64,000 bases of DNA from an uncultured Planctomycetia bacterium (GCA_964431835.1 CAYSKO010000002.1:137632-201631), one strand, 5' to 3'; shown: positions 14,049 through 52,485, numbered from the stretch's first letter. The notes: generated from the letters alone by a model not told the origin. Numbers and translations: made by a program.

Positions 14049-14049
14049 G

Positions 14050-18538: not shown

Positions 18539-18542
<4 letters not shown>
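17295..18542 (-). CDS. Bifunctional fusion: N-terminal GNAT acetyltransferase (RimL/PseH-like) + C-terminal formyltransferase domain (Formyl_trans_N)
   Basis: GNAT: NAWGKGVGTEA. Formyltransferase: LNCHPGILPGYRG (N-x-H) and HLATAKIDSGPII (H...D...G-P-I). GTG start overlaps the PseC-like stop (GTGA). Confidence 0.75.
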
Positions 18543-21106
<2,564 letters not shown>

Positions 21107-21107
21107 A

Positions 21108-27715: not shown

Positions 27716-27757
27716 TTTAGGACTATAGCATCCGCGTCCGGAGCGGTCAATAAACCT
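27716..27757 (-). promoter_or_regulatory. Extended -10 promoter (TGCTATAGT) 6 nt upstream of the ATG; leaderless-type start of a sub-operon
   Basis: Minus-sense GGATGCTATAGTCCTAAA-ATG. Same GGATGCTATAGT motif recurs at about 30897-30910. Confidence 0.5.
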
Positions 27758-28693: not shown

Positions 28694-28694
28694 G

Positions 28695-29510: not shown

Positions 29511-30871
29511 GCGGCTCTCGCATCGCTACGTTTCAAGAGACCGAGCAGGATCTTCGCCGCAAAATAGAGTGACGCGACCGAATAAAGAAGACGCGAACCG
29601 GCCACGGCCTTCCCCGGCACGTGCCACGCGACGTCCTGCGGGAACGGATAAAAAAGGCCCGGCCCGGCCGAGGCGGTGTCGAGATTGAACGCGAAGATGA
29701 GGACAAAATAAATCCAGGAAAGAGCGCGCGGCCACGGCTCCCCCTTCATCATGAGCCAGACGAAAAGCGGCAGCGTCCACATGAAATAATGGACGTGCGT
29801 GGTCGACGTCGCATGAAGCGTAAGGAGGACCGCCAGCGACAGGCGCAGGAACACGTCCGCACGGCGCCCGGGCGGAACCGGATTGCGGAAGACGAACGGC
29901 GCGATACACGCGAGCCAAGTGCCTACGAGCACGATCTTCGAGGCTTTCGCCACGATCTCGGCGTTCGTACGGAAAATGCTCTGCGTCGCCATCTGTAGGA
30001 CGACCGGCGAGTAATAGGCATGAAGGACGTACCCGCGCGAGTGAACCGCCAGCGGCAGGAGGATGAGCACAAGCGGGGCGGCCGCGCAGGCGGCGAGCTT
30101 CGCGCGCTCCTTGAAACCCGCGCCAAGGACGAGAACGGCCGGCGCCAAAAGAAGGAGTGCGAACGAATCGAGCAGGCACGTGAGGCCGAGCAGAGCGCAC
30201 GCGCGGCCGTTCTTCCCTTTTTCCGCGCAAAAGATCACGGCCCAAAGGCAAAGCGCGGTCCAAAGCCGGTACTGCCCGAAAACGTAGCACCCGTACAGCA
30301 CGATCGGGCTGAAGAGCCAGATCGTGGCCGCCTTGCGCGCGTCTTTTCCGAAAAGGCGCCACAGGATCGCCACGATCCCGGCTTCGGCCAAAAGGTACGA
30401 TGCCTTCATCCAAAAAAGCATCCGGAAAATCGCCGTCGAGGCGCCGAGCACGCAATCATCGGCCTCATTGAATGGCAACTTCTCGGAGACGCCGTAGACG
30501 TCGGAGGTCGAAGAGATGACGACCTTCGACTTCCGGGTTTTGGCAAAGCGAAGTACCGATTCTGCGCCCATCGCATTCACCATGAGCGTCGGAACTGCCC
30601 GCTGGCTTTCTCCGATTTTCTTGAGAGAAGCTTGATGCAGGACGACGTCGGCGTGCGGAACTTTACGCAGAAGCATTCCGGTGTCGAGCACGTCGAGCTG
30701 GATGAATCGGAAGTTGGGATTTTTGAGGTGGTTGCGGACGTTGTCGAGCTTGCCATAGGAAAGGTCGTCGACGCCGATGACTCGCTCGCCCCGCAAGAGG
30801 AGCTCGTCGAGGAGATGGGAACCGATGCATCCGCATACACCGGTGATGAGAATGGTTCGTTTTTTCACCAA
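29507..30871 (-). CDS. Chimeric ORF: truncated SDR Rossmann N-terminus (about 140 aa, no YxxxK) fused in frame to a multi-TM membrane domain
   Basis: N-terminus (M)VKKRTILITGVCGCIGSHLLDELL...VVISSTSDVYG is a paralog of 24646..25617. The membrane part (WLFSPIVLYGCYVFGQYRLW...GYVLHAYYSPVV) is a paralog of 33358..34650. TTG/GTG start with AAGGGGG Shine-Dalgarno. Confidence 0.55.
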   Translation of the reverse strand: MVKKRTILITGVCGCIGSHLLDELLLRGERVIGVDDLSYGKLDNVRNHLKNPNFRFIQLDVLDTGMLLRKVPHADVVLHQASLKKIGESQRAVPTLMVNAMGAESVLRFAKTRKSKVVISSTSDVYGVSEKLPFNEADDCVLGASTAIFRMLFWMKASYLLAEAGIVAILWRLFGKDARKAATIWLFSPIVLYGCYVFGQYRLWTALCLWAVIFCAEKGKNGRACALLGLTCLLDSFALLLLAPAVLVLGAGFKERAKLAACAAAPLVLILLPLAVHSRGYVLHAYYSPVVLQMATQSIFRTNAEIVAKASKIVLVGTWLACIAPFVFRNPVPPGRRADVFLRLSLAVLLTLHATSTTHVHYFMWTLPLFVWLMMKGEPWPRALSWIYFVLIFAFNLDTASAGPGLFYPFPQDVAWHVPGKAVAGSRLLYSVASLYFAAKILLGLLKRSDARAA

Positions 30872-30940: not shown

Positions 30941-32278
30941 ATGACCCGTGTCGCCTCTTGTATTAGAATACCGCCCGTGGCTCCCTCTTCTGTCCGAAAG
31001 TCGCTCCTAATCGCCGCCGCCGCGGCCGCCGCGGCGTCGCTTCCTTTTTTGAGCGGCGCTCTTCCGGAAAAAGCGGCTTTAACGGCGCTCACCGTGGCTG
31101 TGTTGGCAGGCGGGTTCGCAGGAAGAGGGCACGGAAAGGCCGCTTCGCTGGTTCTTCTTGCCGCCTCCCTCTGCGTCGCTCTCGCTGCCTGCGATCTCCT
31201 GGCGCGACTTCTTCCCCCGAGCATCTTCTATTATCGCCCCGAAGACGCCTTCCTCAGTCGGCGCCCGGAAATGCCTGCCGTGTCGCGCTTTTCGAAGAAC
31301 GCCCGGTTCCGGGGCCGCGTGGTCGGGGACCTGGCGGCGCTTGCGGGAGGTCATGCCGAACCGCGCGACGTCTGTTTTGTGACGGACGAGGCGGGTTTTC
31401 GCAATCTTCCTGGTACGCGCGCCCGAGCGATCGACGTCCTGCTCGTCGGAGATTCGTTCGGTATCGGGAACGGCACTTCGCAGGAAAAAACATGGGCGAG
31501 CGTTCTCGAAAACCGCTACGGGCGTACCGTTTACAATCTCTCGACTGGCGGATCACCGTGGACCGAGCTTATGAACGTGAAAACCGAAATCGACTCGCTC
31601 CGCACGGCTCCCGACGCCGTCCTGGTCTGGGCGCTTTTCACGGGCAATGACCTGGACGGCGAATACCGCGGAACCGAACCGGTCTTCACGGCCCCGCTCG
31701 AGCGTTTCGGCGTCCGATGGACGACGTTCCGCGAGCGCTCGCCGGTGCGGCTCCTCCTGCGGCGGGTGCGGTACGCGCTTCGGCTGAGCGCCGACACGCG
31801 CGGTCCTTCACCGGTTCACGCGCGCGTTCTTCCCGACGGTCGAACCGTCCTTTTCCTGAACGACTACGCGAAAGCCGAAGAGAAGCCTTACTCGGAATGC
31901 ATACGGAGCAAAAATTTAGGAGCGCTCCACGCGACATTCGCCGAAATGAAAAGGCTTTGTGAGGAGAAGGGCGTTCGGGTTGCCGTTGTGGTGGTTCCGA
32001 CGAAGGAAGGCGTTTATGATTGGATCCTGAGCGGAAAGCGGAGCGCCACGGCCTCGAGCGGTTTTTCCCTTCTCGTCCGCGATCTTTGCGGCGAAAACGG
32101 CTTCGCGTTTTTGGATCTCAAAGACCCGATGCGACGGCTCGCGCTCTCGAAACCGGAGACGTCGCTCTGGTGGCTCGACGACACTCATTGGAACGACGCC
32201 GGGCACGCCGAGGCGGCACGCCTGGTCGAAGCTAAGCTAGGTTCGCCCCGCTTGCGAAGCGACGAGCGATCGTTCTAA
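30941..32278 (+). CDS. SGNH/GDSL hydrolase-fold protein of the AlgX/AlgJ type (candidate polysaccharide O-acetyl/acyl transferase or esterase), N-terminal TM anchors
   Basis: LLVGDSFGIGNG (GDS block) and DDTHWND (DxHW motif of AlgX/AlgJ-like proteins). One of only two plus-strand genes. Confidence 0.7.
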   Translation: MTRVASCIRIPPVAPSSVRKSLLIAAAAAAAASLPFLSGALPEKAALTALTVAVLAGGFAGRGHGKAASLVLLAASLCVALAACDLLARLLPPSIFYYRPEDAFLSRRPEMPAVSRFSKNARFRGRVVGDLAALAGGHAEPRDVCFVTDEAGFRNLPGTRARAIDVLLVGDSFGIGNGTSQEKTWASVLENRYGRTVYNLSTGGSPWTELMNVKTEIDSLRTAPDAVLVWALFTGNDLDGEYRGTEPVFTAPLERFGVRWTTFRERSPVRLLLRRVRYALRLSADTRGPSPVHARVLPDGRTVLFLNDYAKAEEKPYSECIRSKNLGALHATFAEMKRLCEEKGVRVAVVVVPTKEGVYDWILSGKRSATASSGFSLLVRDLCGENGFAFLDLKDPMRRLALSKPETSLWWLDDTHWNDAGHAEAARLVEAKLGSPRLRSDERSF

Positions 32279-33361
32279 GTTCACGGCGATGCGCTCGGCC
32301 GCTTTTCCGTCCCATCCCCGCGGCACGCGAGTCTTCTTCCATTTCCCGGCGATCGCTTTCCGCGCCGCCGCGACCACGACCTTCACGTCCGAACCCACGA
32401 GCACGTTCGTCCCCTCTCTCACCGTGACGGGCCGCTCGGTGTTTTCCCGCATCGTCAGGCACGGAACACCAAGTTTCGTCGTCTCTTCCTGAATACCGCC
32501 CGAGTCGGTGAGCACGAAAGCACTTTCCTTTACGAGCTTGAGAAAATCCGTGTAGCCGAGCGGCTCGATCATCCGAAAACCCGGTAAGGCCGCGAAGCGT
32601 TTTCCGAGACCGTGCGATTCGATCATCTTCCGCGCGCGCGGATGGACGGGATAGAGAACCGGCGTCAGACGCGCGATGGACTCGAAGATCGAAAGGATCT
32701 TAAGGAGAGCCGCCTTCGTGTCCACGTTCGAGGGCCGGTGCATCGTCACCACGGCATACCCCTTCGGCCGGAGCCCAAGGCTCGCGACCACGCGCGATCT
32801 CTCGATGGCGGGAAGTCCCGCGACTAGGCTGTCGATCATCACGTTACCGTCGAAAAAAACCCGTCTCGCCGGAATCCCCTCGCGTCTCAGGTTCCGGATG
32901 GCACTCTCCTCGGTCACATAGAGAAAATCCGACAGGCGGTCCACCGCGATCCGGTTGATTTCTTCGGGCATCGCCCTGTCGAAGCTGCGAAGTCCAGCCT
33001 CGACGTGCGCGACCGGCACCTGCATCTTGGCAGCGGCAAGGGCGCACGCGAGTGTCGAATTCACGTCTCCCACCACGACGATCGCATCCGGACGCTCCTT
33101 AAGAAGCGTCCGCTCGAAAAGCTCGAGCACCTTCGCGGTTTGAGCGCCATGCGTTCCGGAACCGACCTCGAGATGCACGTCCGGCTTCGGGATGCCAAGG
33201 TCCCGGAAGAACACCCCCGACATCTTGAAGTCGTAGTGCTGTCCGGTGTGAACGAAGACGACCTGGAAGCGCTTTCGGAGCGCGCGGATGAGCGGCGCGA
33301 CCTTAATAAAGTTTGGCCGCGCCCCTGCCGCCACCACGACCTTCAAGCGCCGCCGTTTCAC
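32237..33361 (-). CDS. UDP-N-acetylglucosamine 2-epimerase (WecB family), paralog 3
   Basis: (V)KRRRLKVVVAAGARPNFIKVAPL...HTGQHYDFKMS...DVNSTLACALAAAKM...HVEAGLRS. GTG overlaps the upstream stop (GTGA). The 3' end overlaps the convergent plus-strand gene by 42 nt. Confidence 0.8.
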   Translation of the reverse strand: MKRRRLKVVVAAGARPNFIKVAPLIRALRKRFQVVFVHTGQHYDFKMSGVFFRDLGIPKPDVHLEVGSGTHGAQTAKVLELFERTLLKERPDAIVVVGDVNSTLACALAAAKMQVPVAHVEAGLRSFDRAMPEEINRIAVDRLSDFLYVTEESAIRNLRREGIPARRVFFDGNVMIDSLVAGLPAIERSRVVASLGLRPKGYAVVTMHRPSNVDTKAALLKILSIFESIARLTPVLYPVHPRARKMIESHGLGKRFAALPGFRMIEPLGYTDFLKLVKESAFVLTDSGGIQEETTKLGVPCLTMRENTERPVTVREGTNVLVGSDVKVVVAAARKAIAGKWKKTRVPRGWDGKAAERIAVNLERSLVASQAGRT

Positions 33362-34650
33362 GTCACGCTCCCCAGCCGCGGCCGGATGCGAGCGCGGTAC
33401 AGCGAGAACGCGAAGTAGGCGCACAGGACTGAGAACCCGAGGCGCGCGAGAGCGACAAACTTGCCCCAGGGAAGGAACCTCTCCATGACCTCATGAAGGC
33501 TCGGCAACGAGGAAAAGAACACGGGGTCGAGCGGAACGAGAAGCCCGAGGTTCATCGCGCGCGAATCGAGATTGAAAAAGAAAAGAAAACCAACCATTGC
33601 CGCGGAAAGCGGGTACACCCACGGCTCGCCCTCGTCGAAGCGCGCGAGAATCCAGAAAGGCAGTGCCCAAAGGACGTAGTGAACCATTGTCACGGACGTC
33701 GCGTAGAGCGCAAAAAGGACGGCGAGCGCCGTGCACGCGAAGAGACGCCCTCTCTCGATGTCCGACAAGGTGCCGGGAGCGCGACAGACTCGCACAAAAA
33801 GGAACAAGTAAAAAAGAAGGAACGCCGTTTTTAAAGCGATAGGAAGGATCCCGGGGGCGTGCACGAACATCCCCTGCGTCGCCGCGCCGACCACGACCGG
33901 CGAAAAATAGGCATGAAGAACGAGGCCTCCGGAGGAGATCGCCAGCGGCGCCACGACCAGAAGAGGAAACACCGCGAAGCAAAGCGCAAGCTCCGTCCGC
34001 TCCCTCCATCCTCGCCCCAGAATCATGAGGGCAGGCGGCAGAAGAAGCATCGGATAATTCTCGAGGCACGCCGCTGCGCCCGCCAGGACGAACGCCGCGT
34101 GCTTGCGTCTTGAACGCAGCGCCCAGAAGAAGACCCACCAGCACGCAGCCGAAAGGACCCGGTACTGGCCGAACGCGTAGGTGGAGAAAATCAGGATCGG
34201 GTCGAAGAGCCACCCGCGGAGCGCTTTTTTCCGTCGGTCGGGGGCAAAAGCGTGCCACAAAGCGGCGCACGCCAGCACATCCGCGAAGAGGTACGGAAGC
34301 TTCATGAGGAAAACGCGCCGGAGAAGCGCCGGCTCGGGGGAGCCCAGATACACCGCGATGGAGCGTCCGCCCTCGCGCATAAGCGCGTCCGTGCGGACCA
34401 TGAACTCGGCGAAGCCCGGATCGAGCGGTATAAGAAGTATCTGAAATAAACCAATGAGGAAATACGCCAGCGGCGGATAGTACGTGAAGCCGTGACGCAG
34501 ATACGTGTCCCCCAGATGCCCGTAAACGTCCCACACCCCGTGGAGACTGAGAAACGACGGGAAATACTGGATGAATAAGATATCCGCGTGGAGGGTCGCT
34601 GGCATCAGCGCCAGGCGCAGGGCGAGCGCCGCCGCGAGAAGTTTTTTCAC
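33358..34650 (-). CDS. Polytopic membrane protein of unknown function (candidate GT-C-like glycosyltransferase or polymerase). Paralog of the membrane half of 29507..30871.
   Basis: 10 or more TM helices; conserved FGQYR...HAYFSPVV blocks shared with the chimeric ORF. Confidence 0.6.
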   Translation of the reverse strand: MKKLLAAALALRLALMPATLHADILFIQYFPSFLSLHGVWDVYGHLGDTYLRHGFTYYPPLAYFLIGLFQILLIPLDPGFAEFMVRTDALMREGGRSIAVYLGSPEPALLRRVFLMKLPYLFADVLACAALWHAFAPDRRKKALRGWLFDPILIFSTYAFGQYRVLSAACWWVFFWALRSRRKHAAFVLAGAAACLENYPMLLLPPALMILGRGWRERTELALCFAVFPLLVVAPLAISSGGLVLHAYFSPVVVGAATQGMFVHAPGILPIALKTAFLLFYLFLFVRVCRAPGTLSDIERGRLFACTALAVLFALYATSVTMVHYVLWALPFWILARFDEGEPWVYPLSAAMVGFLFFFNLDSRAMNLGLLVPLDPVFFSSLPSLHEVMERFLPWGKFVALARLGFSVLCAYFAFSLYRARIRPRLGSVT

Positions 34651-34657
34651 CCGCTCG

Positions 34658-34816
34658 TCAGAAGAGAGTGTAAATGAGCGGGGCGACGGCCGAAGAATGT
34701 GTGACGATGATGAGAAGGCCGATCACGACGAGCATCGTCAGAATCGGCAGAAGGACGAGGTTCCGTGTCGACGTCATGAACCCGAAGAGCGCTTTCAGAT
34801 CTTTAAGGGAGCGCAT
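34658..34816 (-). CDS. Small membrane protein (52 aa), SxtK/DUF5989-like; commonly accompanies carbamoyltransferases
   Basis: MRSLKDLKALFGFMTSTRNLVLLPILTMLVVIGLLIIV...; ATG preceded by GGAAAGGA. Confidence 0.55.
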   Translation of the reverse strand: MRSLKDLKALFGFMTSTRNLVLLPILTMLVVIGLLIIVTHSSAVAPLIYTLF

Positions 34817-34829
34817 GGGTATCCTTTCT

Positions 34830-35213
34830 TCAGTACGGGTTTTCGCAGGCCTTGTCGTCTTTTTCCGTCGGCTTCGGGCGATGGATCCAGTAGCTGTCGC
34901 GGACCGGCTCCAAACGACGTTTGAGCGCGTCGCCCTGCAGCGCGCGCACAAGGAGACCGTAAGGCGCGAATATAACATAGAAGAAAACGATCATGAACAG
35001 TTTTGTGAGAAGCTCGCCGAGCTTCGTGAGGAGCCCCGAGTAGAGGCGGTAGAACGCGTCGGCCGCCGATGCGCTCGCCAGACGCAGGACAACGAGAAAC
35101 GCGCAGAAACCTCCGGCGGCCCATCCGAACGCCGCGTGCCCGCGGTAAAACGTGAAACACGAAACGCCGGCCAGGATGAATGGAACGACCCGGTAAAAAC
35201 GTTTGGAATCCAT
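34830..35213 (-). CDS. Small membrane protein (127 aa), SxtJ-like; commonly accompanies carbamoyltransferases
   Basis: MDSKRFYRVVPFILAGVSCFTFYRG... two TM segments. GGGAG Shine-Dalgarno; lies directly downstream of the carbamoyltransferase stop. Found by hand translation; the ORF track masked it inside a long spurious frame. Confidence 0.55.
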   Translation of the reverse strand: MDSKRFYRVVPFILAGVSCFTFYRGHAAFGWAAGGFCAFLVVLRLASASAADAFYRLYSGLLTKLGELLTKLFMIVFFYVIFAPYGLLVRALQGDALKRRLEPVRDSYWIHRPKPTEKDDKACENPY

Positions 35214-35224
35214 CGGCGCTCCCA

Positions 35225-37039
35225 TCAGTCGAGACCCGCCAGCTCGGCACCCTGATATTCGTTCACCGATCCCGCCTTCTGGCCGGATTTTTCGAGGAAG
35301 AAGGAACCGAGCACCAGCACGTCCATTTTCGTCTTCAGGAAGCAGCGGTACGCCTCGGACGGCGCGCAGACGATCGGCTCTCCGCGGACGTTGAACGAGG
35401 TGTTGATGAGGACGGGGCAGCCGGTGAGCCGGTCGAACGCCTCGAGAAGTTTCCGGAAGCGCGGATTCTCCGGACCCACCGTCTGCACGCGCGCCGAGCC
35501 GTCGACGTGCGTGACGGCCGGGATGGTGGAGCGGACGTCGTGCAGGCGGTCGAGCCCACGCGGGCGCTTTCGGTCGCCTACACGCTGCTTGGAAGCGACG
35601 TCCGCGACGATCAGCATGTACGGGCTCTCTCCTTCGAGGTCGAAATATTCTTTCGCGCGCTCGCGGAGGACCGCCGGGGCGAAAGGACGGAAGCTCTCGC
35701 GGAACTTGATCTTCAAGTTCATGATCGACTGCATCTTCGACGAACGCGCGTCCCCGAGAATGCTGCGGGCGCCGAGCGCGCGCGGCCCGAACTCCATCCG
35801 GCCCTGGAACCAGCCGACGACCTTCTCCGAAGCGATCGCCTTCGCGGTTTCCTCTGCGATCTCCGCCTCGGACAGCTTCCGGTAGGCCGCGCCCTCGGAA
35901 CGAAGGAACGCCTCGATCTCCCCGTCTGTGAACTCCGGCCCCCACAGCGAGGCGCCCTGGATGCCGTGTACCGGATCCGGGTTCGGGACGCGGGGCTGCT
36001 TGAAATAGTGGTGGTTCACGTACATCGCCGCGCCGAGCGCACCACCTGCGTCGCTGGAAGCGGGCTGCACCCAGATCTCGTCGAATATCTTCTCTTTTTG
36101 GATCTTTCCGTTCGATACGCAGTTGAGAGCCACTCCGCCGGCTAGGCATAGACGCCGCTCGCCCGTGGTCTTTCGCACGTGCCGCGCCAGGCGAAGCATC
36201 GCCGTATCGAGGACCTCCTGGATGGAGCGCGCGACGTCCAGATGGCGCTCCTGGAACGGGCTTTCCGCCGGCCGCGCGGGGCCCCCGAAGAGATCCTCGA
36301 ACTTGCGGTTGATGGAATTGAGCCCGCCCGCGTAGCCGAAATAATCCATGTTGAGCCGGTAAGAGCCGTCGTCTTTCAGATCGATCAGGTTCTCGAGAAT
36401 GAGGTCCATGTACTTGGGCTCGCCGTAAGGCGCAAGACCCATCAGCTTGTACTCGCCTGAATTGATCCGGAAGCCGAGGTAATGCGTGAACGCCGAGTAA
36501 AGAAGCCCAAGGGAATGAGGAAAATGGATCTCGGCCTGGATATCGAGGCGGCGGTCGTTTCCGACGCCGTAGCTCGTCGTCGCCCACTCGCCCACGCCGT
36601 CGACGGTCAGGAACGCGGCACGATCATAGGGCGACGCGTAGAACGCCGACGCGGCGTGCGACTGGTGGTGCTCCGGAAATAGAATCGGCGCTTTGGTCTT
36701 CAGCTCCTCCTCGATCATGGAGTGGATGTAGAGCCGGTGACGGATCCAAAGCGGGATCGCCTGCAGGTAGGACGGGAGGCAGCCCGGGGCGGTCAAGAGA
36801 TGGGTTTTCAGGATGCGGTCAAACTTGAGAAGCGGTTTGTCATAGAATGCGACCGCGTCGAGGGCGTCCGCCGAGACGCCGCCCTGCTTCAAGCAAAACT
36901 CGACCGCGCGGGCCGGGAACGAGTCGTCGTGCTTTTTGCGCGTGAAACGCTCTTCCTGCGCGGCCGCGACGATGCGCCCGTCCTCGAGAAGACACGCGGC
37001 GCTGTCGTGATAGAACGCGGAAATTCCGAGGATCTTCAT
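35225..37039 (-). CDS. Carbamoyltransferase of the NodU/CmcH/SxtI family (O-carbamoyltransferase)
   Basis: MKILGISAFYHDSAACLLEDGRIVAAAQEERFTRKKHD... plus C-terminal carbamoyltransferase domain. ATG overlaps the upstream stop (ATGA). Confidence 0.9.
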   Translation of the reverse strand: MKILGISAFYHDSAACLLEDGRIVAAAQEERFTRKKHDDSFPARAVEFCLKQGGVSADALDAVAFYDKPLLKFDRILKTHLLTAPGCLPSYLQAIPLWIRHRLYIHSMIEEELKTKAPILFPEHHQSHAASAFYASPYDRAAFLTVDGVGEWATTSYGVGNDRRLDIQAEIHFPHSLGLLYSAFTHYLGFRINSGEYKLMGLAPYGEPKYMDLILENLIDLKDDGSYRLNMDYFGYAGGLNSINRKFEDLFGGPARPAESPFQERHLDVARSIQEVLDTAMLRLARHVRKTTGERRLCLAGGVALNCVSNGKIQKEKIFDEIWVQPASSDAGGALGAAMYVNHHYFKQPRVPNPDPVHGIQGASLWGPEFTDGEIEAFLRSEGAAYRKLSEAEIAEETAKAIASEKVVGWFQGRMEFGPRALGARSILGDARSSKMQSIMNLKIKFRESFRPFAPAVLRERAKEYFDLEGESPYMLIVADVASKQRVGDRKRPRGLDRLHDVRSTIPAVTHVDGSARVQTVGPENPRFRKLLEAFDRLTGCPVLINTSFNVRGEPIVCAPSEAYRCFLKTKMDVLVLGSFFLEKSGQKAGSVNEYQGAELAGLD

Positions 37040-38046
37040 CGCGCGGTCCCCCGCAGGTAGCGCGCTTCGAGGTGGTCCGCGAGTTTCTCGGCGATCAGGC
37101 GGTGGCCGGCCGGGTTCGGATGGAAGTAGTCGCCCGGCGTGATCTTGAGAGCGTCTTCGTCCCGGCCTTTCAGCGCCGCGAGGAGGTCGAAGGTGTCCAC
37201 GCCGAGATCGCGGCCCGCCCCGAGGATCTGGTCGTGCAGCATTTGGTACGGATACCGTTCGTTTTCGCCGAGGCCGATGAGACGCGGGAAAACGGCGATC
37301 GTGAACTCGAATCCTTCCGAGCGGGACAGCTCGCGGATCTCGCGGAGCGCGGCGGTCGACGCCTTCCAGCCCGGGTGATCCGGCTTGAAGTGCTCGTCAT
37401 AGGTTTCGGCGAACTGCTGAGGAGTCACGCGGTGGCGCATGACTTCGATCTTCTTTCGGAAGAAGGCGTACAGGTAGGAGTGTTCCTTGAGAAAATCCTT
37501 CACCCGGCGAAGCGCGGGGTTTCCGATGAGGCCCTGTTGGCGCGAGAAAGGTTCCGCGTCGTTTCCGACGTAACTCAAAAGAACGAGATCCGGGCGATAG
37601 CGCAGCCCAATTTCCTTGAGCAGAATCGCTTCCTGGTACGTGTTGTAGCCGCGAATCCCGCCGTTCAGCACTTCCACGCGGAGTCCCCGCGCGGAGAGGA
37701 CTTCCTCGAGCCGCTTCGAGAACGTCTCCTCGGCGGCGACGCCGTCACCGAAAGCCACAGAATCGCCCAGCACGAAGACGCGATAAACGCCTTCCGGTTT
37801 CTCCATCTGGAAATCGCGGTCGCGCAGGCCGGAGGAATTGATGCGGATCGGGTTGCCATTGATGTCGCGGCCCGTGAATCCGGGCCTGTGCTCGAACGCG
37901 CGTGTTTCGCTGCGGCGGAAAAGCCCGGGCGGCGTGTCGATGAGCGACGTTTGCGAAAGCACGAATTCGCCGCAAACAACGGCGATCAGGGAGCCCGCGG
38001 CCAGCGCGAGAACGGGTCTTAAGAAGGTCGTAAACATGCGGGCCAT
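37036..38046 (-). CDS. SGNH/GDSL-family hydrolase (lipase/acylhydrolase or esterase), N-terminal signal anchor
   Basis: VFVLGDSVAFGDG (GDS block) ...GIRGYNT... DxxH near the C-terminus. GGGGGTG Shine-Dalgarno. Confidence 0.7.
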   Translation of the reverse strand: MARMFTTFLRPVLALAAGSLIAVVCGEFVLSQTSLIDTPPGLFRRSETRAFEHRPGFTGRDINGNPIRINSSGLRDRDFQMEKPEGVYRVFVLGDSVAFGDGVAAEETFSKRLEEVLSARGLRVEVLNGGIRGYNTYQEAILLKEIGLRYRPDLVLLSYVGNDAEPFSRQQGLIGNPALRRVKDFLKEHSYLYAFFRKKIEVMRHRVTPQQFAETYDEHFKPDHPGWKASTAALREIRELSRSEGFEFTIAVFPRLIGLGENERYPYQMLHDQILGAGRDLGVDTFDLLAALKGRDEDALKITPGDYFHPNPAGHRLIAEKLADHLEARYLRGTAR

Positions 38047-38050
38047 TCTA

Positions 38051-39049
38051 TCACACCCCCGCGCCGGTGCGCTTCCTGCCGATCATCACGAAGAAACCGC
38101 CCTCGCGGTCCGCCGTCAGGAGCATCCCCGTCTCGACCAGGAGGCGTTCGAACCCGGTGCCCGGCACGGACGGCTCGAAGAGCCGCTCGTCGTCGGTGAC
38201 GGACTCGAACGGGCGCGTCTTGGGGATCGAGCTCACGAAATCGACGCCGCTCTCCTCGAACCACCGGAGCACCTCGCCGAAGGTGTGTTTCGACTCGTGC
38301 GGGTTCTTGTACTGATCCATGAACCAAGTGCGCTTGCGCGTTTCGCTCAACTTCTCCCTCTTGATACGGGGGTCTAGAAACTGGAAGCGATTGCCGGTGG
38401 CGTTGAAGATCGCCCGGCGGACGTCGGTCGGGATGCGGCTGTACGCGTGGTAGAGGCCGATAAGGACGTGTCCGCCCGGCTTCGCGAGGCGGAGTATCGA
38501 GCGGAAAGCCAGATACGGGTCCGCTGTGTGGTGCAGGACCCCGTTCGAAATGACGAGGTCGAACGATTCGCGCGCAAACACCGGCCGGAACAGGTTCATC
38601 TGGCAGAACGACACGTTCTCGATCTCATTGCGGGTTTTGAACGCCTGTGCGAGACGCAGTGAGTTGAGGCACATGTCGGCGCCGATTACCTGCCGGCCAC
38701 CGGTGATTCCAAGGAAATTGCTGAGCTGGCCCGTGCCGCAGCCGCATTCAATCACGCGCGCGCCGTTGGGCAGCTGCTCGTCAAGAAGCCGGGCGAGAAC
38801 TCCCTTCTCGGCCTTGTCGCGAAGCGTCGCTACAGAGTCGATGTCCTCGTAGTTCGGGAACGGCGTCTCTTCGTAGAAAGCTTTCATGGCCTCGGTGACG
38901 TCGGCCCTGCCGTCCCAATCGTTCGGAAGGAAGAAGAGCGGGATCCCCGCCTCGGAAGTGAACGCTTTGCCGCAGGCCTTGCACGAGAAACCGGCGCCTT
39001 CGCGTGCGAGGACGCCCTCGCAAGCGGGGCAAAAAAGAGATGGGTTCAC
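38051..39049 (-). CDS. Class I SAM-dependent methyltransferase with N-terminal CxxC...CxxC zinc-ribbon
   Basis: CPACEGV...CKACGK; VIECGCGTGQLSNFL (motif I). GTG start. Confidence 0.75.
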   Translation of the reverse strand: MNPSLFCPACEGVLAREGAGFSCKACGKAFTSEAGIPLFFLPNDWDGRADVTEAMKAFYEETPFPNYEDIDSVATLRDKAEKGVLARLLDEQLPNGARVIECGCGTGQLSNFLGITGGRQVIGADMCLNSLRLAQAFKTRNEIENVSFCQMNLFRPVFARESFDLVISNGVLHHTADPYLAFRSILRLAKPGGHVLIGLYHAYSRIPTDVRRAIFNATGNRFQFLDPRIKREKLSETRKRTWFMDQYKNPHESKHTFGEVLRWFEESGVDFVSSIPKTRPFESVTDDERLFEPSVPGTGFERLLVETGMLLTADREGGFFVMIGRKRTGAGV

Positions 39050-39141
39050 GCGAAAAAAAACGTCCCCTGTTTTTTCATCTGAACATTATGTCCGAAGAGC
39101 CGGAAATTGCCAAACAGAAAGAGACGGGAATCCGAGGAGGC

Positions 39142-42100
39142 TTAGATGGGAACGGAAGCTGTTGCCGCGGCCGAAGCCGCGGATTCATTGTCCGCCGCGT
39201 CGAGCGCGAGGACGGAATAGGAGTACGAGGAGCCGCGCGCGACCGTGCGGTCGACGTAGGTGGGACTTTCCGTCGAGCCGAGAGCCGCGCCGTTACGGAG
39301 CACCCGGTATCCCGTCACGCCGACGGCGTCCGAAGAAGCCAACCAGTCGAGACCGACGACCGCGGTATTGACTCCCGGTTCCGTCACCGGCCGTGTCATT
39401 TTGTAAAGAGAGGCGTCGGCGCGGACATCGGCCAGGGCCTGAACGGGATGGGCCGAGGCGCTCGCGTCGGTGAAGGCGCGCGGTTCGGCGGCGCGCAAAA
39501 GCAGGCGTGTCGACGCGTCCGGATCGGACGCGAGCGTAGGCGGCGTAAACGGAACGTCCCAGCGCGCCAGACCGCGCGTAACGCGGAAGCCGTCCAGACG
39601 GCCGCCCAGATGCGTGATGCGGTCGTCGCGGTAATCGAGACAGCCCACTACGAAGGGTCCGGAGTAATCAGGATACGGATCGGGGTCGACGCCGCTCGCC
39701 TTCTCGACGCCGTCGCGGAATATTTTCCAGGTCGAACCTTTGCGCACGAGCGCCAGGTGGTACCACGTGTTGGGCGCGATCGAATCGGGCGCCACGAGCT
39801 TGGAGCCGTAAGTGAACACCTGCATCCCGGCGTTGAAGGTCCACTGGCGGCCGTTCCATTCGAAGCGCATGTAGTCGACACTTGAATTGCCCTGCGAGAA
39901 GATCGCCTGGATCGCCGAGACGTTGTCGAAGCGCGCCCAGAAGTCGATCGTCAGATCGTCGGAGGCGAGGTTCCAATCTGGGGCGTCGGCGAAGACGAGC
40001 GCGTCGCCCTGCCCATCGAAGAAGATCGAGGTGCCGGGCGCTTCGGCGGGGACCTGGGGAGTTTCCTCGGAAGCGGCGGCGCGGAGGTTCGCGGGGACGG
40101 TCGGGGCGGCGGTGTCGGTCCCTAGGGTCGCGGCGTTCACGGCCGCGCTAGGCGCACTCTCGTTCTGCGCGTTGTCGACGGCCGTGACGCGGTAGGAGTA
40201 CACCTGCCCCGGCGTCACGCCGGTGTCGGCGTAAAGCGTGACGAGCGTATCGAAAGAACCGGCCAGCTGTCCGTCCCGGAAAATCTTGTAGGTCGCGACG
40301 TCCCGTTCGGGGCTCGCCGCCCACGTGACGAGAATCTCGCGGGCTCTCGCCTGCGCGGCGAGCGAAGTCGGGGCCGCCGGAGACGTGACGTCCGGAATGG
40401 TGACGGTCACCGCCGCGCTCGAGGCGGACACGTTGCCGGCCGCGTCGTGCGCCTTCAGGAAATAGGAATAGGCGTTCCCGTCGGTCACGCCGGCGTCGAC
40501 GTACGACCGCGAAGCGGTCTGCGCGATCTGCGCATTGTCGCGGAAAATACGGTAGCCCGTGACGCCGACGTTGTCGAGCGGGGCGTCCCATGCAAGACTC
40601 GCCTTCTTCACTTCCACGACGCCGTACGTGCGGATAGACGGGACCGAAGGCGCGGTGAGATCGGCGATCGTGAGCGAAACCGGACCGGCTTCTGGCGATT
40701 CGTTGTCCGCGGCGTCGAACGCCCGCACGGCGTACGCGTACGCGCGGCCGGGCACGCCTGTCGAGTCCCGGTAAAAAGCGACCGTCGAAACGCCGACGCG
40801 CACGCCGTCGCGGAAAACCCGGTACCCCGCCACGCCGCGGTCGTCGATCGAAGCGCTCCACGTAACGTCCGCGCTTTCGCCCGCCACCTGCCGCACTGCA
40901 AGATCCCCCGGAACCGACGGCGGAAGCGTGTCGTCCACGCCCGGGAAGCGCAGCTTGTAAGCAGAGCTCGCGTCGCGCGAGATCCAAAGCGTGTCGCCGT
41001 CGGGCGCGAACGTCATCGCGTTGGCGCCGGACCCGTTCGGGAGATTGAGGGTCAAGTCGTGCCAGGTGACGCCTGCGTCCTCCGAGAAGAAGATTTTGCC
41101 GGGCGCGTGGCCGTTCCACTTGACCGTACTCACCGCGATGCGCGACGGATTCGTCGGGTCGATGGCGATGCCGTCGCAGGTGCCGCTGCCTTCGAATTTT
41201 TTGAGAAGCCCCCACGATGTGCCCCGGTTGCGCGAAACGTAGAGCGCCGGGCCTCCCGTGTCCGCCGCGGCGTAGACCGTCCCCGCGGAATCGACCGCGA
41301 TGTCGAAGACGTAATTGCTCGCGCTGAAGACCTTCGACCAGTTGGCGCCGTAATTTTCGGTGCGGTACACGCCGCCCGCCGCGTCCCCAACCGTGCCCCA
41401 GTAGATGCGACTCGGCTCGAGCGGATCGACGGCGAGGCCGTTGTAAATTTTGAGCGACGCAGGCTGGGCCGCCCCGCGCGTCCACGCGTAGCCGCCGTTG
41501 GTCGAATAAAAGAATCCGCCGCCGTCCGTTCCGTCGATGCCCAGATAATACCGTGTGGGATCGACGGGATCGCGCGCGAGCGCGCGGGCGTAGCCTTTAT
41601 CCCAGACGACGGACGTGCGCGGGTAGGCCGCGGGAAGCCCGTTTTTCGTCTTCGTGAACGACGTGCCGCCGTTTTCGCTGATGAGAATCTGATTCGCCGC
41701 CCCGTTCCAGGGCGAATTGGTGGCCACGATCTTGCTTCCGTTCACGACGACCTTCCAGACGTGCCCCGCGATCGAATTGTCGTAACCCGCGCCAGGAATG
41801 ATCGCGCGGTACGTCGTGCCGCCGTCCGCGGAAACGGCCAGGCCGTTGTCCATCGTTCCGACGAACACGCGGCCGTCCGCACCGATGTCGATGTCCGAAC
41901 CGATCGTGTTGAAGGCGCCTTTGATGCGCTCGCGCCAGGTGACGCCCGCGTCGTCGGAACGCCATACGCCCCAGAAGTCGGCGAAATAAAGGACGTTCGA
42001 ATCGAAGGGATCAATGACGGCCGTAAGCGGCCAGCCGAAACCGGTCGACCACGCGCGCGTCGGATTGGAGGTGAGATCGTGCGAAAGGCCGCGCTCGACG

Positions 42101-43035
42101 CCGGTCCAGCTCAGGCCGCCGTTCACACTGAGAAGCGCGGTCCCGTTCCAGCCGTCGCGGCAGCCGACGAGGAGGCGCACGCCCTCCGGGCTCGTGGCGG
42201 CCGAAAGCCGGTACACTTCGCCCGCAGTGGGAAGATCGACGCTGTAGCGCCAGCTCGCGCCGTTGTCGGAGCTGATCGAAACGCGCGTGCCGCCCGCCAC
42301 GTAAATCGTGTTTCCGATGGACGCGATATCGAGCGCCCGCGGCGTCAAAGGCGACAGCGTCTCCCACGCGCCCGAGGCGACGGTGCAACGACGGAGCCCG
42401 TTGAACGCGCCCGCGAAAAGATAAACGCCGTCGCCGGTCAAGTGAAGGGCGCTGGCGGCGGCTCCGAGAGGGTTCCCCATGGACGCCCAGGTGACGCCGC
42501 CGTCGGACGAACGAAAGATCTCCCCGGTCTGCGTGCCCGCGAAGACGCGGTTGGGGTCCGACGGGTGCACGACGATCGAGCGGTAATCGTCGGGACGCTT
42601 GAAAATCACCCGGTTGCGGGTGGCTTCGAGAAAACGCCACTGCGTGCCCGCGTCGTCGGAGCGGTGAATGCCGATCGATGTCCCCGCGTACAGCACGTTC
42701 GGATTGGACGGCGCGACGGCGAGATTCACGATCTTGATGTTAATGAGCCCCTCGTTCTTCGGAACCCAGAGATTGCCGCGGTCGTCGCTGCGCCAGATGC
42801 CGCAGACGTCGGAAAGAAGATAGACGCGACCCGCTACCGAGGGGTCTGGAACGACCATGGGGTAGGCGCCGCCGCCGTACCAGCCCGCGAATTCCCATGC
42901 GAGTCCGGTCGGAAGCGCGCTCGCAGGCACGGCTCCGCCGACGAGGCACGACAAAACAAGGGCGGCAACGGCCGCAAGGGCAGGTCTTTTCACAGGGAAA
43001 GGGATTCTCCGAAAACGTACGGTAAGCGGAAACAT
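39142..43035 (-). CDS. Large secreted protein: signal peptide, about 12 BNR/Asp-box repeats (sialidase/sortilin-type beta-propeller), four FN3 domains, a LamG/concanavalin-like domain and a terminal FN3. A GTG start at about 42993 is probably the real one.
   Basis: Repeated S-x-D-x-G-x-T-W boxes (SDDRGNLW, SDDAGTQW, SSDGGVTW, SDNGASWR, SVNGGLSWT, ...). FN3-like PxxPxxL...W...Y repeats. LamG-like FDGQGDALVF...WYHLALV. The ORF's ATG lies inside a TATAAT box, so the downstream GTG (VKRPALAAVAALVLS...) with GGAGA Shine-Dalgarno is favoured. Confidence 0.75.
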   Translation of the reverse strand: MFPLTVRFRRIPFPVKRPALAAVAALVLSCLVGGAVPASALPTGLAWEFAGWYGGGAYPMVVPDPSVAGRVYLLSDVCGIWRSDDRGNLWVPKNEGLINIKIVNLAVAPSNPNVLYAGTSIGIHRSDDAGTQWRFLEATRNRVIFKRPDDYRSIVVHPSDPNRVFAGTQTGEIFRSSDGGVTWASMGNPLGAAASALHLTGDGVYLFAGAFNGLRRCTVASGAWETLSPLTPRALDIASIGNTIYVAGGTRVSISSDNGASWRYSVDLPTAGEVYRLSAATSPEGVRLLVGCRDGWNGTALLSVNGGLSWTGVERGLSHDLTSNPTRAWSTGFGWPLTAVIDPFDSNVLYFADFWGVWRSDDAGVTWRERIKGAFNTIGSDIDIGADGRVFVGTMDNGLAVSADGGTTYRAIIPGAGYDNSIAGHVWKVVVNGSKIVATNSPWNGAANQILISENGGTSFTKTKNGLPAAYPRTSVVWDKGYARALARDPVDPTRYYLGIDGTDGGGFFYSTNGGYAWTRGAAQPASLKIYNGLAVDPLEPSRIYWGTVGDAAGGVYRTENYGANWSKVFSASNYVFDIAVDSAGTVYAAADTGGPALYVSRNRGTSWGLLKKFEGSGTCDGIAIDPTNPSRIAVSTVKWNGHAPGKIFFSEDAGVTWHDLTLNLPNGSGANAMTFAPDGDTLWISRDASSAYKLRFPGVDDTLPPSVPGDLAVRQVAGESADVTWSASIDDRGVAGYRVFRDGVRVGVSTVAFYRDSTGVPGRAYAYAVRAFDAADNESPEAGPVSLTIADLTAPSVPSIRTYGVVEVKKASLAWDAPLDNVGVTGYRIFRDNAQIAQTASRSYVDAGVTDGNAYSYFLKAHDAAGNVSASSAAVTVTIPDVTSPAAPTSLAAQARAREILVTWAASPERDVATYKIFRDGQLAGSFDTLVTLYADTGVTPGQVYSYRVTAVDNAQNESAPSAAVNAATLGTDTAAPTVPANLRAAASEETPQVPAEAPGTSIFFDGQGDALVFADAPDWNLASDDLTIDFWARFDNVSAIQAIFSQGNSSVDYMRFEWNGRQWTFNAGMQVFTYGSKLVAPDSIAPNTWYHLALVRKGSTWKIFRDGVEKASGVDPDPYPDYSGPFVVGCLDYRDDRITHLGGRLDGFRVTRGLARWDVPFTPPTLASDPDASTRLLLRAAEPRAFTDASASAHPVQALADVRADASLYKMTRPVTEPGVNTAVVGLDWLASSDAVGVTGYRVLRNGAALGSTESPTYVDRTVARGSSYSYSVLALDAADNESAASAAATASVPI

Positions 43036-50691: not shown

Positions 50692-50762
50692 TTATTTTGA
50701 CACGGAAGAACGAAAGGGCTTATACGTTCGTGCGCGGCCGGCCGCCGAGGACGAAGGGGTTG
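50692..50762. repeat. Direct repeat copy B. Here it forms the genuine 3' end of gene 50720..52483 (last 13 codons plus 28 bp downstream).
   Basis: ttattttgacacggaagaacgaaagggcttatacgttcgtgcgcggccggccgccgaggacgaaggggtt. Confidence 0.8.
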
Positions 50763-52483: not shown

Positions 52484-52485
52484 AA

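Follow-up and report, generated by a model that had tools for sequence, protein, structure and literature searches.

A carbamoyltransferase gene set with a divergent SxtJ-family protein and a DUF5989 protein in a putative operon of a planctomycete glycan island

The stretch of DNA analysed here (the window, 64 kb) carries adjacent genes for a NodU/CmcH-type class III O-carbamoyltransferase (CT), a divergent SxtJ-family membrane protein and a DUF5989 protein within a tightly packed, putative seven-gene operon. This trio has already been named by NCBI PGAP and Pfam, and the set in the window is a further example of a known, functionally uncharacterised module. A preliminary description of the same DNA had reported the three genes inside a glycan locus; all three were confirmed, on the minus strand, and almost every gene of the window turned out to have a sugar-nucleotide or glycosyltransferase function. 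The trio may form a membrane-tethered O-carbamoyltransferase complex acting on a membrane-bound glycan intermediate, a reading that we consider evenly balanced between right and wrong. That the envelope of this organism contains an O-carbamoylated sugar can reasonably be inferred from the operon.

The features are listed in Table 1. The promoter match lies 36 nt upstream of the methyltransferase start, and the methyltransferase and SGNH genes are separated by 4 nt. SGNH and CT share 4 nt at their stop and start, respectively, whilst the CT/SxtJ junction is a 1-nt overlap or an 11-nt gap, depending on whether the 131-aa or the 127-aa start of the SxtJ-like gene is taken. Further gaps of 13 nt (SxtJ/DUF5989) and 7 nt (DUF5989 stop/430-aa gene) follow, and the 430-aa gene overlaps that of WecB by 4 nt. 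Terminator-like sites in the operon are not commoner than in shuffled sequence. An AlgX-like SGNH is also encoded in the window (30941-32278).

Table 1. Features of the putative operon in the window.
Feature	Position	Strand	Length	Basis or remark
SAM-dependent methyltransferase, first gene of putative operon	38051-39049	minus	332 aa	Methyltransf_31/11/25
Membrane-anchored SGNH/GDSL hydrolase, SxtL-like position	37036-38046	minus	336 aa	Lipase_GDSL_2
CT, NodU/CmcH-type class III O-carbamoyltransferase	35225-37039	minus	604 aa	Pfam domains
Divergent SxtJ-family membrane protein	34830-35213	minus	127 aa	hhalign + AlphaFold2
DUF5989 (SxtK-like) single-pass membrane protein	34658-34816	minus	52 aa	PF19451
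Orphan polytopic membrane protein	33358-34650	minus	430 aa	at least 7 hydrophobic segments
WecB, non-hydrolysing UDP-GlcNAc 2-epimerase, last of tightly packed run	32237-33361	minus		TIGR00236
Sigma-70-like promoter match	39085-39113	minus		10/12, best of the region; consensus match only, no evidence of function

The CT protein begins MKILGISAFYHDSAA. It had been called unambiguous in the preliminary description, and both Pfam domains bear this out: Carbam_trans_N (PF02543) matches residues 2-339 with 327.8 bits (E 1.3e-97, cut-off 24) and Carbam_trans_C (PF16861) residues 399-584 with 240.1 bits (E 1.2e-71, cut-off 27), both above their gathering scores and in the N-to-C order of class III O-carbamoyltransferases. 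The nearest solved structures are those of NovN (9s2t, phmmer E 9e-93), GdmN and TobZ, with matches down to 8e-86. In a 15-sequence clade alignment, H11, H124, H128, D147, D330 and the motif G418-P-R-A-L-G423 are invariant, and the catalytic motifs align with those of NovN. The iron ligands of GdmN are H133, H137, D156 and D333, and its general base is H27 (PMC9633730); H124/H128/D147/D330 and H11 are their counterparts by homology, not by structural superposition. The GPRALG motif corresponds to the 'GPRALGRS' site of sxtI (2026 preprint). Together, the Pfam domains, solved homologues and catalytic residues support the prediction of a working O-carbamoyltransferase. An assignment as a NodU orthologue was rejected, the NF041651 equivalog model giving 155.8 bits vs. 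a cut-off of 1000 over a partial match (residues 279-555). The protein ends in ...GLD, as do 72 of the 73 unfused clade members. A specific link of the ...LD terminus to SxtJ-bearing loci was likewise rejected, since SxtJ-less Rhodothermales CTs (L029, L034) end in LD too.

The 52-aa protein, whose gene is preceded by a GAAAGGA ribosome-binding site, matches PF19451 with 58.9 bits (E 5.1e-16, cut-off 27), residues 7-52 covering positions 4-49 of the 49-position model. This confirms its earlier assignment to DUF5989, with which its length and its single hydrophobic core (residues 25-43) agree; its N-terminus is basic. It is 60-64 % identical to the same-position protein of the nearest relatives. 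Its likeness to SxtK rests on size (sxtK 165 bp, 54 codons) and on position after sxtJ.

The 127-aa gene had been described as hidden by a long spurious frame, and it is indeed buried in a 585-aa ORF with a GTG start (34830-36587), which is in its frame and reads through the CT gene. A GGGAG Shine-Dalgarno sequence lies 5 nt before its ATG. Translation could also begin at 35225, in an overlap with the CT stop codon (TGATG), and the product would then have 131 aa; both starts are used by public gene callers. Neither the 127-aa nor the 131-aa form has a Pfam or NCBIfam match, even at E <= 10. The SxtJ model PF19588 (gathering score 24.4 bits) fails at this threshold both with the window protein and with its closest subclade (P0122, P0123, P0125, P0126), and a word-indexed homology search with the 127-aa protein returned the self match only. 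The next relatives pass PF19588 (P0128 31.0, P0130 36.9 and P0156 25.4 bits), and phmmer connects the 127-aa protein with P0128 and P0130 at E 4e-11 and 2.7e-10, respectively. At E <= 1e-3, an exhaustive phmmer search of 1.8 billion proteins yielded 870 cluster representatives, of which nearly all have 110-160 aa. The hhalign comparison of subclade A4 with set A5, which consists of PF19588-positive proteins, some of them NCBI-named 'SxtJ family membrane protein', gave a probability of 99.8 % and an E value of 4.1e-28 over 129 columns. This profile-profile homology is decisive for classifying the 127-aa product as a divergent member of the SxtJ family. The SxtJ-like identity suggested earlier stands on this ground, the plain Pfam scan proposed for it having given no match. 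The tie to SxtJ of the saxitoxin cluster (ABI75100) rests on the name and definition of the Pfam family and on gene size and order. Members of the divergent subclade are 39-43 % identical and have an invariant C-terminal C-E-x-P-[FY]. The 127/131-aa protein is encoded directly 3' of CT on the same strand, as expected of SxtJ-family membrane proteins of ~130 aa, and this arrangement recurs in 75 of the 80 clade loci described below.

The AlphaFold2 model of the 127-aa protein (pLDDT 91.9) has helices at 3-24, 27-46 and 48-91 and an extended tail, and hydropathy places hydrophobic cores at ~8-24, 28-46 and 71-89. The transmembrane helices expected earlier for both small proteins are therefore present, by hydropathy in both and by AlphaFold2 in the larger one. 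Foldseek found no match to the model in the PDB at E <= 0.001. In Ralstonia, a 68-aa 'mini-SxtJ' is reduced to the last helix and the conserved tail; this last hydrophobic helix, with the basic 'R-x-x-G-x-D-x-L-x-R...SYWI' tail, forms the conserved core of SxtJ. If the N-terminus is inside and there are three helices, the conserved tail should lie outside; an inside location of the tail is argued from its 7.5 K+R per protein and from the single-helix mini-SxtJ.

Conservation of the small ORFs next to CTs had been put forward as a check on the preliminary description, and it was observed on a wide scale. The CT clade was sampled at 80 genome loci whose CTs are 55-62 % identical; more than 20 phyla are represented, among them CPR bacteria with reduced genomes. 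An adjacent same-strand SxtJ gene is present in 75 of these loci and a DUF5989 gene in 54, CT-J-K being the dominant order (45 of 80). Neither gene occurs in any of 12 control loci with CTs of <=42 % identity (NodU/NolO-like, LPS-core, Streptomyces, Bacillus and phage; Fisher p = 1.7e-11). The phage CTs are ~30 % identical, and no SxtJ or DUF5989 gene was found at the phage loci examined. The survey shows that SxtJ and DUF5989 are tied to one specific, highly conserved CT clade far beyond cyanobacteria. About a quarter of the SxtJ-containing loci are without a DUF5989 gene within 6 kb, so DUF5989 appears dispensable in some lineages; in the 21 loci that lack the gene, the DNA following SxtJ was searched for an overlooked DUF5989-like ORF, and no convincing candidate emerged. 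Single ORFs that fuse CT to SxtJ occur in L011 (Pyrinomonadaceae, 739 aa) and L077 (Aegiribacteria, 745 aa), and P0196 is a third independent fusion, of Carbam_trans_C and SxtJ. The fusions imply a cytoplasmic N-terminus for SxtJ and favour physical association of the two proteins.

In the proposed complex, CT would act as the cytoplasmic two-domain enzyme. Its YrdC-like C-terminal domain would make carbamoyl-AMP from carbamoyl phosphate and ATP, and its Kae1-like N-terminal domain would pass the carbamoyl group on to a hydroxyl; this two-domain mechanism via carbamoyl-AMP has been established in its homologues TobZ and GdmN. The role of the SxtJ-like and DUF5989 proteins would be non-catalytic: as membrane subunits they would hold CT at the cytoplasmic side of the cell membrane. 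The complex would be co-translated with the methyltransferase, the membrane-anchored SGNH enzyme, the polytopic membrane protein and WecB. The acceptor would most likely be a sugar of a polyprenyl-linked intermediate, which, once O-carbamoylated, would become part of an envelope glycan from the surrounding island. The SGNH enzyme may serve as a partner esterase with a tailoring or editing role.

The SGNH protein matches Lipase_GDSL_2 with 61.2 bits (E 2.3e-16, cut-off 32.9) and has an N-terminal hydrophobic anchor (residues 8-26), its catalytic domain being predicted outside the cytoplasm. SGNH homologues lie within 6 kb of CT in 38 of the 80 clade loci vs. none of the 12 distant-CT loci; they were also found in Ralstonia and Azospirillum loci, there without a membrane anchor. 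Both the fold match and this recurrent adjacency to the CT clade are consistent with a partner of CT, its likeness to SxtL being one of enzyme family and position. The nearest relatives (L085 and L086, 72 % CT identity) keep the order methyltransferase-SGNH-CT-J-K, with SGNH directly 5' of CT, and continue with two PMT_2 GT-C glycosyltransferases; their methyltransferase is a 59 % identical orthologue in the same position. In L017 the CT and SxtJ genes are separated by a gene for a homologue of the methyltransferase (6.6e-117). The 430-aa protein has no Pfam match at E <= 10 and does not resemble the PMT_2 GT-C proteins found at its position in relatives, and its single-sequence AlphaFold2 model (pLDDT 43) is unusable. 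WecB scores 315.9 bits against TIGR00236 (cut-off 210), and its gene call in L001 has 374 aa.

It seems unlikely, though worth weighing, that the trio carbamoylates a conserved acceptor that is not a glycan or is otherwise locus-independent, for example a common membrane lipid or, as with saxitoxin, a small metabolite, the glycan-island position then being incidental or a matter of co-regulation only. From phylum to phylum the trio has different immediate neighbours (rotamase, amylase, DNA-repair genes and others), and no single conserved neighbour family besides SGNH was found in the clade loci. Neighbours recorded upstream in 70 loci and downstream in 62 are mostly unrelated housekeeping genes, GT2 and GDSL accounting for only 5-7 each, as would be expected of a portable trio. 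Combined with 55-62 % CT identity over more than 20 phyla, down to the reduced-genome CPR bacteria, this heterogeneity suggests a conserved acceptor and not a strain-specific glycan. The sxtIJK(L) block, moreover, operates in an alkaloid pathway; the saxitoxin acceptor, as far as is known, is a soluble alkaloid, not a lipid-linked sugar. However, the genes recurring near the trio over the 80 loci are glycan genes (GT2 11, GT4 6, Wzy_C 5, GT9 4, DegT 4), and the relatives with 72 % CT identity have a PseB-like dehydratase as well as the two GT-C glycosyltransferases flanking the module. The overlaps and 4-13 nt spacings that join the window genes into one run with WecB also speak against an incidental position.

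Another possibility, somewhat less probable still, is that SxtJ and DUF5989, with three helices and one, form not a passive anchor but a small translocator for a carbamoylated lipid-linked sugar or product, like ArnE/ArnF or GtrA. Such a role would suit a pair of small hydrophobic proteins with some four helices between them. GT-C enzymes use polyprenyl-phosphate-sugars as donors, and those that come directly after the module in the nearest relatives would need a flipped donor; an anchored SGNH enzyme with its catalytic domain predicted outside would also require that something cross the membrane. Yet a Wzx-like flippase (Polysacc_synt_3, 15817-17604) is already encoded in the window, and the two proteins have neither Pfam similarity to the SMR and GtrA families nor a structural match in the PDB. 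A translocator is also hard to reconcile with the absence of DUF5989 from about a quarter of SxtJ loci and with a single-helix mini-SxtJ being enough in Ralstonia, and fusion to CT is typical of an anchor, not of a transporter. Finally, that both small ORFs are chance open frames, as the 62 % GC of the region, its many long spurious ORFs and the 585-aa artefact into which the 127-aa frame extends might suggest, is already refuted by the conservation of both positions across phyla, the DUF5989 match, the 870 homologues and hhalign result of the 127-aa protein, its well-predicted fold, and the prediction of both genes by public gene callers.

The membrane-tethered complex can be compared with several known systems. 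In the saxitoxin cluster, sxtI (1839 bp), sxtJ (405 bp) and sxtK (165 bp) (PMC2679770) have the same order and sizes as the window genes (CT ~610 aa, ~130 aa and ~52 aa), a GDSL/SGNH gene (sxtL) adjoins, as SGNH does in the window, and the Pfam families relevant to the comparison are PF19588 (SxtJ) and PF19451 (DUF5989). The window proteins are likened to SxtI/J/K/L (ABI75099-ABI75102) by family, gene size and order, not by direct alignment. The sxtI, J, K and L genes have one phylogenetic origin pattern in common (PMC2684587), and sxtJ/K/L also occur together in the suomilide cluster (PMC10157211). The two blocks differ in setting (alkaloid cluster vs. glycan island) and in the place of SGNH, which is 3' of the DUF5989 gene in the saxitoxin block and 5' of CT in the window; in addition, the SxtJ-like protein of the window belongs to a divergent subclade missed by the Pfam SxtJ model. 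The small sxt proteins are 'hypothesised to work in conjunction', their role being unknown in the literature (PMC12300590; 2026 preprint), which agrees with the preliminary description; in the literature searched, no paper mentioning DUF5989 was found.

TobZ, GdmN and NovN have the Kae1-like and YrdC-like architecture, the metal ligands and the general-base histidine in common with the window CT and, by homology, the chemistry as well (carbamoyl-AMP to an O atom). They differ in being soluble enzymes of secondary-metabolite tailoring without an SxtJ or DUF5989 partner, and they fall outside the clade of >=51 % identity to which the window CT belongs. At the C-terminus, GdmN and NovN have a dimerisation domain of ~100 aa (PMC9633730), whereas CTs of the window clade have a 20-aa tail ending in ...LD, after which comes the SxtJ membrane module, either fused or as a protein of its own. 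NodU/NolO and the LPS-core-linked CTs belong to the same Pfam superfamily, and their acceptors are sugars of membrane-associated glycolipids; however, the rhizobial NolO-like and the waaF-linked Ralstonia wenshanensis loci (38-40 % identity) are without an SxtJ or DUF5989 gene. In the glycan O-acylation systems AT3-SGNH (OafA-type), PatA/PatB and AlgI/J/F/X, a cytoplasmic acyl-type donor, small or integral membrane parts and an extracytoplasmic SGNH domain are co-encoded in glycan loci. The likeness of the window module to these systems is by analogy only, SxtJ and DUF5989 having no homology to AT3/MBOAT proteins; the unanchored SGNH partners of Ralstonia and Azospirillum are a further difference.

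A broader proposal can be offered tentatively, and we ourselves rate it as more doubtful than not. CT, SxtJ and DUF5989, often with SGNH, might be an ancient, self-contained and horizontally mobile membrane machine, spread over more than 20 phyla including CPR. Its acceptor, carbamoylated by CT and edited by SGNH, would be membrane-bound and widely conserved, for instance a polyprenyl-linked sugar. The sxtIJKL genes of the saxitoxin cluster would then be a copy recruited from the envelope. CT would dock onto the basic tail and last helix of SxtJ, and the conserved ...DWxKEFxLD C-terminus of CT would be dispensable once the two proteins are fused.

For the genome itself, the gain in annotation is a gene that Pfam does not recognise and that a spurious ORF had concealed, together with a predicted carbamoyl group on a highly elaborate envelope glycan. 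The label 'unknown' has been attached to SxtJ and SxtK ever since the saxitoxin cluster was described. The tie to one CT clade, the fusions, the mini-SxtJ core and the recurrent SGNH fourth partner turn the vague notion of 'works in conjunction' into testable hypotheses. Tractable carriers of the module are found in Sinorhizobium meliloti 1021 (pSymB, 484.6-486.4 kb), Ralstonia solanacearum and Aquisphaera.

The carbamoyltransferase (CT) of the window had been called unambiguous, and Pfam bears this out, since Carbam_trans_N and Carbam_trans_C match over the whole protein. It aligns with the solved homologues NovN (9e-93), GdmN (1e-90) and TobZ (6e-86). The iron ligands and general base described for GdmN (PMC9633730) are invariant in the alignment of its clade (CTs at least 51 % identical to the window CT), and by homology the enzyme keeps the catalytic apparatus of the solved homologues. 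Its stop codon overlaps, as TGATG, the ATG that opens a 131-aa frame of the next gene; a second ATG, 12 bases downstream and preceded by GGGAG, gives a 127-aa version, and public gene callers use both starts. As noted in the preliminary description, this gene is hidden in the ORF track: it is visible there solely as the last part of a 585-aa ORF with a GTG start (34830-36587), which extends through the CT gene. The third gene begins 13 bases past the stop of the second with the ribosome-binding site GAAAGGA ahead, and its 52-aa product does belong to DUF5989. The features are listed in the table.

Features of the trio, its operon and the surrounding glycan genes (window coordinates)
Feature	Coordinates	Strand	Remarks
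PMT/PMT_2 GT-C	4276-6156	-	
Large membrane ORF	6187-8079		no family
Nonulosonic-acid pathway, whole	12628-22145	-	pseudaminic/legionaminic-type
HisF/HisH paralogues	12628-14048	-	
GFO oxidoreductase	within 12628-22145	-	
CMP-cytidylyltransferase	15075-16025	-	
Wzx-like flippase	15817-17604	-	
GNAT+formyltransferase fusion	17295-18542	-	
DegT	18539-19834	-	
PseB-like	19713-20681	-	
NeuB	21108-22145	-	
Arn-like set, whole	22441-30871	-	
PMT_2 GT-C	22441-23934	-	
GT2	23915-25204	-	
Polysaccharide deacetylase	27758-28831	-	
Formyltransferase-like	28695-29510	-	
NAD epimerase/dehydratase	29507-30871	-	
WecB	32237-33361	-	operon, last gene
Polytopic membrane protein, 430 aa	33358-34650	-	starts 7 nt past DUF5989 stop
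DUF5989 protein, 52 aa	34658-34816	-	PF19451 E 5.1e-16, 58.9 bits vs cut-off 27
SxtJ-like protein, 127 aa	34830-35213	-	ATG with GGGAG before
CT, 604 aa	35225-37039	-	Carbam_trans_N 1.3e-97, Carbam_trans_C 1.2e-71 (Pfam), full length
SGNH/GDSL protein	37036-38046	-	N-terminal anchor; overlaps CT start
Methyltransferase	38051-39049	-	operon, first gene
1297-aa protein	39142-43035	-	BNR/Sortilin-Vps10 repeats, fn3, Laminin_G_3
PMT/PMT_2 GT-C	43057-45249	-	
Large membrane ORF	50720-53089		no family
Large membrane ORF	52486-55068		weak YfhO match
PMT/PMT_2 GT-C	60657-62282	-	

The middle protein had been described as SxtJ-like. Direct searches did not bear this out: no Pfam (SxtJ model included) or NCBIfam match was obtained even at E ≤ 10, and a word-indexed homology search returned only the protein itself. 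Profile comparison did. When 1.8 billion cluster representatives were searched exhaustively with phmmer, 870 homologues were obtained at E ≤ 1e-3, almost all of 110-160 aa, many of them named 'SxtJ family membrane protein' by NCBI. The six nearest relatives are 39-43 % identical, and the four of them scanned with Pfam gave no match either; the next relatives, P0128 and P0130 (E 4e-11 and 2.7e-10 against the window protein), pass PF19588, the Pfam SxtJ model. An hhalign comparison of the window-subclade profile with that of the PF19588-positive and NCBI-named proteins gives a probability of 99.8 % (E 4.1e-28, 129/132 columns). Judging from these profiles, the protein is a divergent member of the SxtJ family, which standard annotation misses. 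The Pfam model is limited to the N-terminal 99 positions, which are variable; conservation in the family is highest in the C-terminal '...FY.v.TP.GL..R..G.D.L.R....SYWI.R......YE.QF', whose terminal YE.QF is swapped for an invariant C-E-x-P-[FY] in the window subclade.

Profiles made from both families were used to scan 80 genome loci. Their CTs share 55-62 % identity with that of the window, and more than 20 phylum-level groups are represented (Omnitrophota, Acidobacteriota, Planctomycetota, Ignavibacteria/Bacteroidota, Gemmatimonadota, Verrucomicrobiota, Nitrospirota, Myxococcota, Pseudomonadota, Patescibacteria and others). The order CT-SxtJ-DUF5989 occurs in 45 loci and CT-SxtJ only in 20; a CT-SxtJ fusion precedes DUF5989 in 2, SxtJ and/or DUF5989 lie upstream of the CT in 8, and 5 have neither. 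In 75/80 loci SxtJ adjoins the CT and shares its strand. Of the other five, four offer under 800 nt of flanking sequence, and one, in Rhodothermales (L034), is a genuine absence. DUF5989 was found in 54/80, and no convincing substitute ORF was seen in the negative loci with enough flank. The control was drawn from plasmid and phage records, where CT matches split into groups of ≥51 % and ≤42 % identity. Twelve loci of the distant group (NolO-like, waaF-linked LPS-core, Burkholderia, Mycetohabitans, haloarchaeon, Moellerella, Bacillus, Streptomyces, Deinococcus, cyanophage S-CAM8, Ralstonia phage RsoM2USA) gave no SxtJ or DUF5989 match at E ≤ 0.01 (Fisher p for clade vs. control 1.7e-11 and 7.5e-6, respectively). 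The small ORFs are thus conserved beside CTs, as proposed earlier, and the linkage is specific to the clade. In Aquisphaera giovannonii, PGAP labels adjacent genes 'carbamoyltransferase / SxtJ family membrane protein / DUF5989 family protein'; on S. meliloti pSymB the order is SxtJ-DUF5989-CT.

CT and SxtJ form single ORFs in a Pyrinomonadaceae MAG (L011:6001-8217, 739 aa) and an Aegiribacteria MAG (L077:1675-3909, 745 aa); a third fusion, of Carbam_trans_C and SxtJ, is the metagenomic protein P0196. In each of them a linker into SxtJ takes the place of the CT's ...LD end or comes after it. Unfused clade CTs end in D-COOH in 72/73 cases and in LD in 67/73 (consensus DWxKEFxLD), and the window CT ends in ...AELAGLD (35225-35290); the TobZ alignment ends at query residue 584 (chain residue 572 of 576), just ahead of this tail. 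The motif is no proof of docking, since SxtJ-less Rhodothermales CTs end in LD too. On a Ralstonia solanacearum megaplasmid (CP052091.1), the gene after a 54.6 % identical CT encodes a 68-aa mini-SxtJ (L087:4851-5057; SxtJ profile E 1.6e-9). It contains only the last hydrophobic helix and the basic 'RL.DP...R...SY' tail, which therefore form the conserved SxtJ core. An SGNH hydrolase and a second, different carbamoyltransferase follow; the locus has no DUF5989 gene.

Both small proteins are membrane proteins, as they had been described. The AlphaFold2 model of the SxtJ-like protein (62-sequence alignment, pLDDT 91.9) has helices at 3-24 and 27-46, a 44-residue helix at 48-91 and an extended tail; a PDB structure search found no similar solved structure. 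Hydropathy places its hydrophobic cores at ~8-24, 28-46 and 71-89, and the single core of the DUF5989 protein at 25-43. The SxtJ N-terminus must be cytoplasmic, because natural fusions join it to the cytoplasmic CT. Three membrane passes would put the conserved tail outside, whereas its charge and the Ralstonia mini-SxtJ argue for inside; across the family the C-tail carries 7.5 K+R and the N-terminus 4.5, while the amphipathic first half of helix 3 has 2.5 and the first loop 0.35.

The SGNH gene is a further partner. With two SGNH profiles, homologues were found within 6 kb of the CT in 38/80 clade loci (34/80 within 3 kb with one profile alone), in the Ralstonia and Azospirillum loci, and in 0/12 control loci. 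A hydrophobic anchor precedes the GDS block by 60-96 residues in 15 of 16 partners with canonical GDS. The arrangement resembles the saxitoxin cluster, where sxtL (GDSL lipase) adjoins sxtIJK; a single origin pattern is common to sxtI, J, K and L (PMC2684587), and sxtJ/K/L occur together in the suomilide cluster (PMC10157211). On an Azospirillum brasilense plasmid (L088:4808-6591), a CT at the clade's low end (51 % identity) is followed by an acidic soluble protein of 118 aa and an SGNH-like protein that has GCS instead of GDS. Neither SxtJ nor DUF5989 is encoded in this locus, so linkage to SGNH is kept even where the membrane partners are missing.

In the window, the genes for methyltransferase, SGNH, CT, SxtJ, DUF5989, the 430-aa protein and WecB follow one another with gaps or overlaps of 1-13 nt, which suggests one operon; the top promoter-like site of the region, by sequence match, is located 36 nt ahead of the methyltransferase start. 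The 430-aa protein, an orphan membrane protein, has no Pfam match even at E ≤ 10 and is dissimilar to the PMT_2 GT-C proteins found in its place in the closest relatives. The two closest relatives (CT 72 % identity; one an Omnitrophica MAG) keep methyltransferase-SGNH-CT-SxtJ-DUF5989, with a PseB-like dehydratase ahead and two PMT_2 GT-C glycosyltransferases behind. Identity within the subclade is 72 % for CT, 60-64 % for DUF5989, 59 % for the methyltransferase, 57 % for SGNH and 41-44 % for SxtJ. In an Omnitrophota MAG (L017:7836-8867), the CT and SxtJ genes are separated by a close homologue of the window methyltransferase (E 6.6e-117), which suggests that in this lineage the methyltransferase belongs functionally to the module.

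The evidence best supports a model of an O-carbamoyltransferase complex tethered to the membrane. SxtJ, alone or together with DUF5989, would hold the CT at the cytoplasmic membrane face, where it would carbamoylate a membrane-bound glycan intermediate of the locus, with methyltransferase and SGNH enzyme as co-tailoring or editing partners. The data directly show the gene identities, the linkage within the clade, the fusions and the operon packing, from which the complex, its acceptor and the part played by the SGNH enzyme are inferred. According to the main rival reading, the trio acts on a conserved acceptor molecule unconnected with the locus, and the portability of the trio among heterogeneous neighbours and the conservation of the CT across phyla speak for it. 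That SxtJ and DUF5989 form a translocator is less likely because of the CT-SxtJ fusions, the mini-SxtJ and the frequent lack of DUF5989. The trio is already recognised as a gene neighbourhood through the Pfam families, PGAP names and the saxitoxin literature. Reviews up to 2025-2026 say only that SxtJ and SxtK 'combine' or 'work in conjunction', and no mention of DUF5989 was found in the literature searched. Clade specificity, fusions, mini-SxtJ and SGNH linkage are of modest novelty and open to testing.

The window as a whole is a glycan island. It holds nonulosonic-acid genes (NeuB, PseB-like, DegT, cytidylyltransferase), an Arn-like set (formyltransferase, deacetylase, GT2, PMT_2) that recalls undecaprenyl-phosphate-aminoarabinose (ArnA/C/D/T) logic, at least five GT-C enzymes, three WecB-type epimerases and a Wzx-like flippase. 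At least four PMT/PMT_2 GT-C glycosyltransferases lie in 64 kb, and the density of periplasmic-side glycosylation enzymes is unusually high. Immediately upstream of the operon is the gene for the 1297-aa protein, which may bind or process glycans as a secreted or surface protein.
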